A stretch of 64,000 nt of DNA, from assembly GCF_016903815.1 (NCBI RefSeq), contig NZ_CP069973.1; one strand, written 5' to 3'. The stretch is from Escherichia coli (GTDB lineage: Bacteria; Pseudomonadota; Gammaproteobacteria; Enterobacterales; Enterobacteriaceae). The position numbers were made by a program. Shown here piece after piece: positions 32,901-38,351 of the stretch (its first letter is position 1; each line of letters opens with the position of its first letter).

Positions 32901-35900
32901 ACAGGTGCGCGCTTTCACGTATGACCCGCAGCACCCGGGCCGGATGGTGGGGCACCGTTATGCGGGAAGGCCGGAGATGCGCTACCGCTACGACGATGCG
33001 GGGCGGGTGGTGGAGCAGCTGAACCCGGCAGGCCTGAGTTACCGCTACCAGTATGAGCAGGACCGCATCACCGTCACCGACAGCCTGAACCGGCGAGAGG
33101 TGCTGCATACAGAAGGCGGGGCCGGGCTGAAGCGGGTGGTGAAAAAAGAACTGGCGGACGGCAGCGTCACGCACAGCGGGTATGACGCGGCAGGAAGGCT
33201 CACGGCGCAGACGGACGCGGCGGGACGGCGGACAGAGTACGGTCTGAATGTGGTGTCAGGCGACATCACGGACATCACCACGCCGGACGGGCGGGAGACG
33301 AAATTTTACTATAACGACGGGAACCGGCTGACGGCGGTGGTGTACCCGGACGGGCTGGAGAGCCGCCGGGCGTATGATGAGCGGGACAGGCTGGTATCGG
33401 AGACATCGCGCAGCGGGGAGACAGTACGCTACCGCTACGATGACGCGCACAGTGAGTTACCGGCGACGACAACGGATGCGACGGGCAGCACCCGGCAGAT
33501 GACGTGGAGCCGCTACGGGCAGTTGCTGGCGTTCACTGACTGCTCGGGCTACCAGACCCGTTATGAATACGACCGCTTCGGCCAGATGACGGCGGTTCAC
33601 CGCGAGGAAGGTATCAGCCGTTACCGCCGCTATGACAACCGTGGCCGGTTAACCTCGGTGAAAGACGCACAGGGCCGTGAAACGCGGTATGAATACAACG
33701 CCGCAGGCGACCTGACTGCCGTTATCACCCCGGACGGCAACCGGAGCGAGACACAGTACGATGCGTGGGGAAAGGCGGTCAGCACCACACAGGGCGGGCT
33801 GACGCGCAGTATGGAGTATGACGCGGCAGGACGTGTCATCAGCCTGACCAACGAGAACGGCAGTCACAGCGACTTCAGCTACGATGCGCTGGACCGGCTG
33901 GTACAGCAGCGCGGCTTTGACGGGCGGACGCAACGTTACCACTATGACCTGACCGGAAAACTCACGCAGAGTGAAGATGAGGGGCTTGTCACCCTCTGGC
34001 ACTACGACGAATCGGACCGTATCACTCACCGCACGGTGAACGGCGAACCGGCAGAACAGTGGCGGTATGATGGCCACGGCTGGCTGAGAGAAATCAGCCA
34101 CCTGAGCGAAGGCCACCGTGTTGCCGTCCACTATGGCTATGACGATAAGGGCCGTCTGACCGGGGAGCGCCAGACGGTGGAGAACCCGGAGACGGGGGAA
34201 CTGCTGTGGCAGCATGAGACGAAACAGGCATACAACGAACAGGGGCTGGCAAACCGCGTCACGCCGGACAGCCTGCCGCCGGTGGAGTGGCTGACCTACG
34301 GTAGCGGTTATCTGGCGGGCATGAAGCTGGGCGACACGCCGCTGCTGGAGTACGCGCGCGACCGCCTGCACAGAGAAACGGTGCGCAGCTTTGGCAGCAT
34401 GGCAGGCAGTAATGCCGCATACGAACTGACCAGCACATACACCCCTGCAGGCCAGTTACAGAGCCAGCACCTGAACAGCCTGGTGTATGACCGTGACTAC
34501 GGGTGGAATGACAACGGCGACCTTGTGCGCATCAGCGGCCCGCGACAGACGCGGGAATACGGCTACAGTGCCACGGGCAGGCTGGCGAGTGTACGCACCC
34601 TCGCACCGGACCTGGACATCCGCATCCCGTATGCCACGGACCCGGCGGGCAACCGGCTGCAGGACCCGGAGCTGCACCCGGACAGTACACTCACGGCGTG
34701 GCCGGATAACCGCATCGCGGAGGATGCGCACTATGTCTACCGCCACGATGAATACGGCAGGCTGACGGAGAAGACGGACCGCATCCCGGCGGGTGTGATA
34801 CGGACGGACGACGAGCGGACCCACCACTACCACTACGACAGCCAGCACCGCCTGGAGTTCTACACGCGGATACAGCATGGCGAGCCACTGGTCGAGAGCC
34901 GCTACCTCTACGACCCGCTGGGACGGCGAATGGCGAAACGGGTATGGCGGCGGGAGCGTGACCTGACGGGGTGGATGTCGCTGTCGCGTAAACCGGAGGT
35001 GACGTGGTACGGCTGGGACGGCGACCACCTGACGACGGTGCAGACCGACAGCACACGTATCCAGACGGTATACGAGCCGGGAAGCTTCACACCGCTCATC
35101 CGCATCGAAACAGACAACGGCGAGCGGGAGAAAACGCAGCGGCGGAGCCTGGCGGAGAAGCTCCAGCAGGAAGGGAGCGAGGACGGACACGGCGTGGTGT
35201 TCCCGGCTGAACTGGTACGGCTGCTGGACAGACTGGAGGGGGAAATCCGGGCAGACCGCGTGAGCAGTGAAAGCCGCCAGTGGCTGGCACAGTGCGGGCT
35301 GACGGTGGAGCGGCTGGCGACACAGATAGAGCCGGTTTATTTACCTGAGCGAAAAATTCATCTTTACCACTGTGACCACCGGGGGCTGCCGCTGGCGCTC
35401 ATCAGCGAAGACGGCAATACGGCGTGGAGCGGGGAGTATGATGAGTGGGGAAACCTGCTGAATGAGGAAAACCCGCATCACCTGCACCAGCCGTACCGTC
35501 TGCCAGGGCAGCAACACGATGAGGAGTCAGGGCTGTATTATAACCGGAACCGGTACTACAATCCGTTGCTGGGACGATATATTACTCAGGACCCGATTGG
35601 GCTGGCGGGGGGATGGAGTCTGTATGCGTATCCGCTGAATCCGGTGAATGGTATTGATCCATTAGGGTTAAGTCCTGCAGATGTAGCGTTAATGCGAAAA
35701 AAAGAACAACTAAACCATCAAAGAGCATGGGATATATTATCTGATACTTATGATGATATGAAGAGATTAAATTTAGGTGGGACTGATCAATTTTTCCATT
35801 GTATGGCATTTTGTCGAGTGTCTAAATTAAATGACGCTGGTGTTAGCCGATCAGCGAAAGGGCTGGGTTATGAAAAAGAGATTAGAGATTACGGGTTAAA

Positions 35901-38351
35901 TATGTTCGGTATGTACGGCAGAAAAGTAAAGTTATCCCATTCTGAGATGATTGAAGATAATAAAAAAGACTTGGCTGTAAATGAACATGGGTTGACATGT
36001 CCATTTACACAAGATTGCTGGTAATGCTGCCAACTTACTGATTTAGTGTATGATGGTGATTTTAAGGTGCTTGCGTGGCTTCCATTTCCATCAGATGTCC
36101 TTCCTGCTCCGCTACTGAAGGCGTGGTGCGTAACGGCAAAAGCACTGCCGGACATCAGCGCTATCTCTGCTCTCATTGCCGTAAAACATGGCAACTACAG
36201 TTCACTTACACCGCCTCTCAGCCCGGTACGCACCAGAAAATCATTGATATGGCCATGAATGGCGTCGGATGTCGCGCCAGTGCACGCATTATGGGCGTTG
36301 GCCTCAACACGGTTTTACGTCACTTAAAAAACTCAGGCCGCAGTCGGTAACCTCGCGCATACAACCGGGCAGTGATGTGATTGTCTGCGCTGAAATGGAC
36401 GAACAGTGGGGCTACGTCGGTGCTAAATCACGTCAGCGCTGGCTGTTTTACGCGTATGACAGGATACGGAGGACGGTTGTGGCGCACGTCTTCGGTGAAC
36501 GCACTCTGGCCACACTGGAGCGTCTTCTGAGCCTGCTGTCGGCCTTTGAGGTCGTGGTATGGATGACGGATGGCTGGCCGCTGTATGAATCACGCCTGAA
36601 GGGAAAGCTGCACGTTATCAGCAAGCGTTACACTCAGCGCATTGAGCGACATAATCTGAATCTGAGACAACATCTGGCAAGGCTGGGACGGAAGTCACTG
36701 TCGTTCTCAAAATCGGTGGAGCTGCATGACAAGGTCATCGGGCATTATCTGAACATAAAACACTATCAGTAAGTTGGAGTCATTACCAGATTGCTCAAAT
36801 AGATGTATTGATTATATTAATCCAGAGCATAAAAAAACGATAAAGGCTTTACAAGATGCTGGCTATCTCAAGTAACATCTCAAAGATGGTAATATTTATT
36901 TTTGCTATTATAATCGTTGTTTTTTTATGCGTGACTACTTATCTTTATTTACACAAAGATGAATCTCTTGTAAGTAAGCATTACATAAACTATATGGCAA
37001 TACCAGAAAGTGATGGGGTTTTTACATGGCTCCCAGATTTTTTTCCGCATGTAGCGGTGGATATATCAATATCCACAAATGTAGAAGATGATTATTTTTT
37101 TTCTTATTTTTCCCTAACAATCGATGATGGGGGGAGGTTTAAGAAAACATTGACGGTGAGGGCCAGGGAACAAGTGGCGAAAATCGTATCAGAGAATGAT
37201 CCAGATACAAAAAAAGTGTGGTGTAAATATGGTAAAATACCAGGGCAAGGGGATAGCGTAAACCTTTTTTTTGTTGGTGAAATTAATGTTACGCATTATT
37301 TTATAACAAATATTGGAGCTGGATTGCCTGATGCTTGTGCAGAGTAATTGCTTGAATTAAGAGTCTATCCCATATCGAAGTCGTCAACTTCGTAGTGAGG
37401 AAAAGTAAAATCCCTGACTGAGAAAAGACATGTCGGCTATTGTGTAAAGCCATATAGCTCAGACGATGAATATCTACTCGTATTCAGTTGTTTATTGAGG
37501 GTGAGTTCCGACCCTGAAACAACAAATAAAATGAATAGTCAGAGAGTTTACATAGAATTGCACTAGTCTTTTACGATATCTGACATTGTGTAATACATAT
37601 TCAGCCATGCATTAATTAAAATGTTTCGTGTTTAATGTGAGTCCCTATCTGAAAATAAATAATCCTTCCGGATTAAAATAAATTCTCGCCGGGAAAGAAA
37701 GAGGAAATAAACCATTAGCGGAAAACCAGCGGCACGCCAGGGTGACATGCCCCAGTACGGCGGCCCGATAGTCCAGGGTTCAGCGGGGGTACTGATAGTC
37801 GCGCCGACTGCATCGAGAACTCCATACAACTTTTTACGGAACGTCACCTGATAAAATTTGTTCAGTATCGTCTTTTGAGATTCTCAAGGTTATGGAGTAA
37901 CCAGACAGAACGGACACCACTGTCGGAGATAAAAACCCCCTGTTTACGCAGCTCGTTGCTGGCCCGGTGCTGACCATGTGTCGGGAAAGCGACGGTGTAA
38001 TCAACAACAGCCTGTTCAGTTGCCTCATCGGTACGGTTCTTAAGGTTAGGAGCGCGGCGACTACGATTAATCTGCACATCCACACCGCCTTCAGCGGCCA
38101 GTTCGCGGTAACGATAAAACGTTTCACGCGAAACGCCCATGATTTTACAGGCTTTTGATACGTTGCTGAGTTCTTCAGCCAGATTGAGCAAACCGGCTTT
38201 GTGTTTGATGACGGGATTGGCAGTATGAAGCATGAGAGTTACCTCTTGTTTTGGATAAGGATTCGACACTCATATCAAAACCGGTAACTCTCAACCTTTC
38301 AAGGCCATGTGTCAGATCAAGTCGCGACTAATACAAATACGTCCCTCATCA

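Follow-up and report, generated by a model that had tools for sequence, protein, structure and literature searches.

What is carried at the 3′ end of an rhs gene in Escherichia coli, and how such a domain might act, are the questions raised by the locus described here, which has the ybbP–rhs–mnmH (selU) arrangement of this species. The window, meaning the whole stretch of 64,000 nucleotides (nt) that was analysed (RefSeq assembly GCF_016903815.1, contig NZ_CP069973.1), contains a long Rhs core followed by a C-terminal tip of different base composition, and an initial annotation made from the DNA alone had proposed that this tip is homologous to vertebrate serum amyloid A (SAA). The proposal is upheld by the searches reported below, and the tip is almost certainly both an SAA homologue and the toxin tip of its Rhs protein. 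The broader reading, in which it belongs to the bacterial prok-SAA family, forms the variable C-terminal toxin of the Rhs polymorphic toxin at ybbP–rhsD–mnmH, and acts by a proposed periplasmic mechanism, is considered highly probable; the specific enzymatic step placed within it, in which a periplasmic phosphoesterase would act on lipid head groups, is judged to be evenly balanced.

As it stands, the Rhs open reading frame (ORF) runs from 31897 to 36024 and encodes 1375 amino acids, terminating in ...QDCW. Its core was recognised by Pfam through RHS_repeat (E=1.5e-79), DUF6531 (E=1.2e-18), and RHS (E=6e-17) and ends with DPLGL at 35656–35670, in agreement with the PxxxxDPxGL boundary of Rhs toxins, after which the variable tip begins. 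At this boundary the guanine plus cytosine (GC) content drops from 0.637 in the core to 0.350 in the tip, the collapse that the initial annotation had described, and the ORF downstream has the same value of 0.350. The tip is split by a copy of IS1, so that the relevant features, with positions in the window, are the following.

31897–35670, + strand: Rhs core with DUF6531, RHS repeats, RHS core domain, and DPLGL end (from Pfam and GC content).
35671–36019, + strand: SAA-like (prok-SAA) tip, residues 1–116 and base 1 of codon 117, with helices 1–4 and the invariant residues D39, H43, C44, E70, D100, and N104 (codons: H43, 35797–35799; E70, 35878–35880; D100, 35968–35970; N104, 35980–35982).
36012–36019, no strand: left copy of the IS1 target-site duplication, AGATTGCT.
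36020–36787, + strand: IS1, 768 bp, interrupting codon 117 of the tip and carrying insA and insB on the + strand (from inverted repeats and ORFs).
36788–36795, no strand: right copy of the target-site duplication, AGATTGCT.
36796–36875, + strand: severed 3′ end of the tip, residues 117–142 and the stop, with invariant C120 and predicted helices 5 and 6 (from the reconstruction, intact homologues, and model helices).
36856–37347, + strand: ybbD, candidate immunity gene of 163 amino acids, with an N-terminal transmembrane helix and YbbD_head (from NCBIfam, Pfam of homologues, and synteny).

Joining 36019 to 36796 in silico, with loss of IS1 and one copy of the 8-bp target duplication, gave a 1400-residue Rhs protein with a 142-residue tip (SPADV...QDAGYLK; stop at 36873–36875), the same tip that had been rebuilt in the initial annotation. 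The join is validated by the existence of uninterrupted E. coli copies: in strain M24FEP a 901-nt query covering the tip and the immunity gene was recovered as a single uninterrupted piece at 99.7% identity, and the tip is matched along its full length at 99% identity by the protein clusters P0001 and P0002.

When the single tip was searched against Pfam, SAA (PF00277) was the only family found under E=0.01, matching at E=1.6e-4 with tip residues 17–107 aligned to positions 9–84 of the 102 in the model. A Peptidase_C7 match at E=0.03 was dismissed as weak, partial, and without support from the fold search, and a scan of the tip against NCBIfam matched no family. In the PDB, the five highest-ranking sequences found with the single tip are SAA proteins, each of them individually non-significant as a match (E=0.18–1.4). 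A word-indexed protein search returned near-identical copies from E. coli and Hafnia only, and the diverse relatives came from an exhaustive HMMER search of 1.84 billion representative proteins with phmmer, which found 90 at E≤1e-3, the domain being C-terminal in every one. Ten longer carrier proteins that were tested all contain RHS_repeat, and five of them the RHS core domain. Trimmed sequences of 49 of these relatives were aligned as the source of a family profile (A1), and the ten closest relatives only were used for a stricter control profile (A2). PF00277 is matched individually by 38 of the 49 A1 relatives, with a best E value of 1.2e-26, and the A1 profile searched against the PDB recovered eight distinct SAA sequences at E=1.5e-14 to 2.5e-7, the next sequence, which is not an SAA, following at E=0.18. 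Comparison of A2 with human SAA1 by hhalign gave a probability of 90% and E=1.7e-6.

The residue-level alignments of the initial annotation, which had been made against human SAA1, were also largely borne out. The SAA1 sequence used for them is correct at the aligned positions, as seen in the HMMER alignments to PDB entries 4ip8 and 7zh7; the ungapped block of 32 residues holds 11 identities to SAA1 (4ip8), and the block of 14 residues compared with SAA AEDSLADQAANEWG holds 7, with the HMMER register in agreement. The short upstream match of AWDIL to ARDMW could be reproduced as well, with the correction that a gap of one residue is required.

A model of the tip was built with AlphaFold2 from alignment A1 without templates and reached a predicted local distance difference test (pLDDT) score of 91.3 and a predicted template modelling (pTM) score of 0.85. 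It contains six helices, among them one at alignment positions 105–112 (tip residues 116–123), which corresponds to the short fifth helix of the prok-SAA definition, and one at positions 118–126. The top seven Foldseek matches of this model in the PDB are without exception SAA1 or SAA3 crystal structures, with a probability of 1.00, E=0.017–0.32, root-mean-square deviations of 2.4–3.6 Å, and template modelling (TM) scores of 0.67–0.73 when normalised to SAA; one of them is SAA3 with bound retinol. The remaining matches have probabilities of 0.11 or below, the next one standing at E=4.4. None of the three checks applied to the proposed homology, namely the PF00277 profile search, the Foldseek comparison of the predicted structure, and the verification of the aligned SAA1 sequence, told against it, and the helical-bundle fold claimed at the outset is retained with it.

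It could be argued that the resemblance to SAA is accidental or convergent, the tip being short, low in GC, and rich in helices. Identity between the tip and human SAA1 is only ∼20%, the single-sequence PDB matches lie in the range quoted above, and the profile of the closest clade, A2, places SAA at E=0.12. However, independent profile and fold evidence points to SAA alone, bacterial intermediates approach the motif of the animal proteins by degrees (...ANTIGADKYFHC..., ...MRNANTIGADKYFHC..., and, at the C terminus, ...YRPAGLPAEY), and the conserved residues of the tip coincide position by position with those of SAA1. An origin by chance or convergence is effectively refuted by these observations.

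The family to which the tip is assigned, prok-SAA, was defined by Burroughs, Nicastro and Aravind (eLife 2025; PMC12419801) in the SAA-Wnt clade of the Lipocone superfamily, which unites SAA, Wnt, TelC, VanZ, and YfiM through a shared histidine/glutamate/aspartate (H/E/D) pocket. In that study prok-SAA is described as a polymorphic-toxin tip tied to type VI secretion systems (T6SS), MuF, and RHS, with transmembrane-anchored immunity proteins, and animals are inferred to have acquired SAA from bacterial toxins. A member of the published list (HAU8267270.1, file Prok-SAA.tsv) is 59% identical to the tip over 111 residues (E=3e-45). The tip resembles prok-SAA in its four-helix core and short fifth helix, in its conserved H/E/D residues, in the N..G motif of helix 4, and in its position as a C-terminal tip accompanied by a membrane-anchored immunity protein. 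Vertebrate SAA (human SAA1, 4ip8 and 4ip9; mouse SAA3, 4q5g and 6pxz) has the same fold, but it is a free secreted protein of ∼104 amino acids rather than a toxin tip, contains no cysteines, in contrast to the twin CX3C pair and the CP cysteine of the bacterial clade, and is without two elements of the tip, an insert of ∼13 residues separating helices 3 and 4 and an additional helix at the C terminus.

Conservation among the bacterial relatives was then read from A1. Invariant across the 49 sequences are D39, H43, C44, E70, D100, N104, C116, and C120 (tip numbering), with M30, C48, D73, D96, and G107 conserved in at least 90%; most of these relatives are 23–40% identical to the tip. In the HMMER alignment, the equivalents in human SAA1 are D33, H37, E63, D75, D79, N83, and G86, no cysteine being kept, and the polar residues pair as D39/D33, H43/H37, E70/E63, D100/D79, and N104/N83. 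The histidine in helix 2, glutamate in helix 3, and aspartate in helix 4 by which prok-SAA is recognised are represented in the tip by H43, E70, and D100.

This pattern bears on the suggestion in the initial annotation of a membrane-directed activity, made with reference to SAA as a lipid- and membrane-binding protein. Close to that suggestion is an alternative in which the SAA-fold tip is not an enzyme and kills through membrane binding or insertion, lipid sequestration, or pores. Vertebrate SAA is a helical bundle that binds lipid, high-density lipoprotein, and retinol, and the retinol-bound SAA3 is among the structural matches; the immunity protein is membrane-anchored; and catalysis has never been shown for an SAA-family protein, as is stated in PMC12419801. 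On the other side, D39, H43, E70, D100, and N104 are invariant despite the low overall identity, as is typical of an active site and not of a lipid-binding surface, Lipocone relatives with equivalent H/E/D residues are proven phosphoesterases, and SAW-clade domains are soluble and of low hydrophobicity (PMC12419801). The invariance of these five polar residues favours catalysis by the tip rather than passive binding of lipid or membrane, and a non-enzymatic tip is regarded as unlikely.

Five cysteines are present in the tip, as had been counted initially, at positions 44, 48, 110, 116, and 120, and two CX3C pairs can be seen among them, one in helix 2 (C44-x3-C48) and one in helix 5 (C116-x3-C120). 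We infer that these pairs form two inter-helix disulfides, in which case folding would require an oxidising compartment, the periplasm. The envelope-directed activity that had been preferred over a nuclease in the initial annotation agrees with the conservation of the cysteines and with an immunity protein that is anchored in the membrane.

In the enzymatic mechanism proposed for the prok-SAA tip, the Rhs cage would carry the tip into the periplasm of a neighbouring cell, presumably by the T6SS, where disulfides from the C44/C48 and C116/C120 pairs would staple helix 5 onto helix 2. The H/E/D site would then cleave a phosphate-linked head group from a lipid carrier such as lipid II or another undecaprenyl-pyrophosphate intermediate, and this cleavage would block envelope synthesis; in sibling cells the toxin would be blocked by YbbD, anchored in the inner membrane with a periplasmic domain. 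Cleavage of a lipid carrier is suggested because the related TelC, VanZ/Llp1, and YfiM enzymes act in this way. TelC of Streptococcus intermedius (prok-TelC), an extracytoplasmic lipid II phosphatase and the only experimentally characterised Lipocone toxin (PMC12419801), is likewise a polymorphic-toxin tip of the same superfamily; its action is restricted to sites outside the cytoplasm, and the immunity protein TipC, also extracytoplasmic, counteracts it. TelC differs in belonging to another Lipocone clade, in its delivery by the type VII secretion system, and in its occurrence in Gram-positive bacteria, and no direct sequence match between TelC and the tip was obtained in the sequence searches made here. 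E. coli YfiM is reported in a 2026 preprint to be a Ca2+-dependent pyrophosphatase acting on lipid-linked oligosaccharides, for which H31, E72, and D91 are essential and whose overexpression leads to osmotic lysis.

The gene proposed to supply immunity, ybbD, overlaps the 3′ end of the toxin by 20 nt at its own 5′ end. Its product was matched by NCBIfam NF011298 at E=1.5e-112, is called "YbbD family protein" by RefSeq, and has homologues carrying PF26610 (YbbD_head) in precomputed Pfam annotation. The protein opens with a 22-residue hydrophobic stretch, consistent with the membrane anchor assigned to it in the initial annotation. Genes encoding YbbD_head are also found behind distant SAA-type tips: one lies directly 3′ of the P0031 tip, which is 55% identical to the tip of the window, in another complete bacterial genome (locus L006), and one lies 3′ of the metagenomic Rhs protein P0090, whose tip scores 57 bits against Pfam SAA, above the gathering cut-off. 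Given these occurrences, the pairing of SAA-type tip and YbbD_head, as toxin and candidate immunity protein, is conserved across the family. The YbbD_head protein behind P0090 (locus L010, 5683–6207; metagenome 3300044603) appears without an N-terminal transmembrane helix, which could be a miscalled start codon or a truly soluble variant. Locus L006 (2832–7183; CP029992.1) is an orphan array behind an Rhs gene and comprises an Ntox16 fragment, a DUF6714 gene, the Rhs fragment bearing the P0031 tip with its YbbD_head gene, and then TseH with Imm58.

The same SAA-like tip has been seen before. In an in-silico study of 2020 (Front Cell Infect Microbiol; PMC7216683), the C terminus of RhsD (z0651) from enterohaemorrhagic E. 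coli (EHEC) O157:H7 EDL933 was modelled on human SAA1 (4ip8A, TM 0.623), and the PF00277 motif was reported at e≤0.01 in seven proteins of O157:H7 strains, there named PAAR-Rhs. The strain compared here is O157:H7 TX 265-1 rather than EDL933; it has a tip of this family in the same place, between ybbP and mnmH, its tip and immunity DNA being 95.2% identical to that of the window, and we infer from gene name and serotype that its Rhs protein is the equivalent of z0651. The O157:H7 protein is intact at 1398 amino acids, whereas the copy in the window is interrupted by IS1. Catalytic residues, cysteines, and the immunity gene are not discussed for z0651 in the 2020 paper, which proposes instead, from the resemblance to human SAA1, an immunological role in the host.

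According to that proposal, the tip would be a host-directed mimic by which EHEC steers inflammation or chemotaxis. Its distribution is difficult to reconcile with such a role. Of 5426 complete E. coli genomes, 2862 (∼53%), across all pathotypes, contain the tip and its downstream gene, and in laboratory K-12 the tip is a silent orphan. An immunity-type gene stands directly 3′ of the tip in E. coli, in the other complete bacterial genome, and in a metagenome, and relatives of the tip include sequences from environmental metagenomes. The transfer of SAA is furthermore inferred to have run from bacteria to animals and not the reverse (PMC12419801). Host mimicry is accordingly held to be very improbable.

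In K-12 MG1655 and many other genomes, the orphan tip is ylbH, which together with the remnant ybbD lies behind rhsD and its immunity gene ybbC. The K-12 pair has 95.5% DNA identity to the tip and immunity gene of the window and occupies the same chromosomal position, but the K-12 tip is promoterless and follows the RhsD tip and ybbC, whereas the arrangement in the window, AR_0067, and O157:H7 has neither the rhsD tip nor ybbC, and its ylbH-type tip continues a full-length core. The final 258 nt of the core in the window (35413–35670) share 90.7% identity with the core fragment that precedes K-12 ylbH, compared with 81.8% for the tail of the rhsD core, and across the terminal 500 nt identity to rhsD declines from about 0.95 to 0.79. 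Such a footprint fits recombination of the main gene with the orphan or, conversely, C-terminal displacement. Beyond ybbD in the window lie an Rhs N-terminal fragment (∼37710–37810, + strand), the equivalent of which RefSeq annotates as a truncated hypothetical protein, and beside it the ylbG-like helix-turn-helix pseudogene (37862–38269, − strand). The K-12 pair also differs from that of the window in ybbD. A tract of eight T residues (T8; within window positions 37081–37110) keeps the frame intact here and in M24FEP, and a tract of seven (T7) at the same homopolymer shifts the frame and leaves an 86-residue product in K-12 MG1655 and O157:H7 TX 265-1. The corresponding positions in the loci L001 and L004 are 6635–6665 in both.

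A narrower reading is put forward tentatively, being somewhat less probable than its contrary: that the enterobacterial ylbH-type tip represents a disulfide-stapled (twin CX3C) subclade of the SAA family, served by a previously undescribed immunity family, YbbD_head, distinct from Imm-SAA, and that this pair, present in over half of E. coli genomes, would be the most tractable system in which to ask whether SAA-family proteins are enzymes acting on the head groups of lipid II or other undecaprenyl-linked molecules. The answer would bear on what vertebrate SAA primarily does, a question of long standing.

Several findings weigh against the assignment of the tip as a periplasmic prok-SAA toxin, or limit how far it can be taken. 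On the side of homology, the PF00277 score of the tip (22.5 bits) is below the gathering cut-off of 30.8 bits by which Pfam curates strict membership of the family. The A2 profile ranked SAA first among PDB sequences at an E value that is not significant alone, with a glutathione S-transferase chain at E=0.22, and the strong sequence statistics therefore lean on intermediate sequences or on profile–profile comparison. The position of the prok-SAA motif sNxxGR reads V-N104-E-H-G107-L (VNEHGL) in the tip, where the asparagine is invariant and the glycine at least 90% conserved, but the arginine is replaced by leucine in this clade. On the side of mechanism, the substrate and the catalytic role suggested for H43, E70, and D100 are extrapolated from other Lipocone families, the phosphoesterase activity of prok-SAA is a prediction in PMC12419801, and enzyme activity has been shown for no prok-SAA or vertebrate SAA. 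No PAAR model was found by Pfam at E≤0.001 on the Rhs N terminus, where only DUF6531 was matched, and delivery by the T6SS is thus presumptive.

The remaining points concern immunity. An AlphaFold2 model of YbbD, built from an alignment of seven sequences, had a pLDDT of 49 with the transmembrane helix alone confident. The published immunity family, Imm-SAA, is defined by an α-helix and four β-strands with four absolutely conserved cysteines (PMC12419801); the identification of YbbD with this family was rejected, as no conserved cysteine column is present among five aligned YbbD_head proteins, and in this the partner of the tip departs from those of prok-SAA. Finally, O157:H7 TX 265-1 has a full-length Rhs with an intact SAA-like tip beside the frameshifted ybbD, which would not be expected of an active toxin exchanged among siblings.

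The statement in the initial annotation that no characterised effector of SAA fold was known holds in its experimental sense, since the literature search found no experimental characterisation of any prok-SAA toxin; the similarity itself was published in 2020 and 2025. The SAA-like tip of E. coli is already known, then, the same locus having been described in the first of these papers and the family in the second, and the window adds no new principle: the idea and an E. coli example were both in the literature. As far as was searched, what is not explicit in PMC7216683 or PMC12419801 is the assignment of the K-12 ylbH/ybbD pair to prok-SAA, the frequency of ∼53%, the twin CX3C arrangement, and the YbbD_head partner. 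In the supplementary files of PMC12419801 that were searched the word "Escherichia" was not found, and within the parts of that publication covered the link to E. coli K-12 ylbH is not spelled out; a literature search on the function of ylbH and ybbD returned incidental mentions only. The practical value is modest and consists in connecting prok-SAA with two uncharacterised genes of K-12, ylbH and ybbD, and in pointing to intact alleles (O157:H7 and M24FEP-type). What SAA, a major acute-phase protein, primarily does in biochemical terms is still debated, and a bacterial homologue that serves as an inter-bacterial toxin, has conserved residues resembling an active site, and is paired with its own immunity protein lends support to the published view of an SAA ancestor that was a toxin aimed at the lipids of the envelope.

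In the strain examined, this toxin is very probably inactive. IS1 entered between C116 and C120 and takes away the final 26 residues, including invariant C120 and helices 5 and 6, and the toxin of the strain is therefore most likely dead; as read from the sequence, the locus would hold an IS1-disrupted toxin pseudogene next to an intact immunity gene. The element has terminal inverted repeats GGTAATG...CATTACC and carries insA (36075–36350) and insB (36269–36772). It is flanked by a direct repeat of 8 bp (AGATTGCT), a target duplication of 9 bp being more usual for IS1. The segment 35001–37400, IS1 included, is identical in E. coli AR_0067 (NZ_CP032261), where an IS1 family transposase is annotated by RefSeq.

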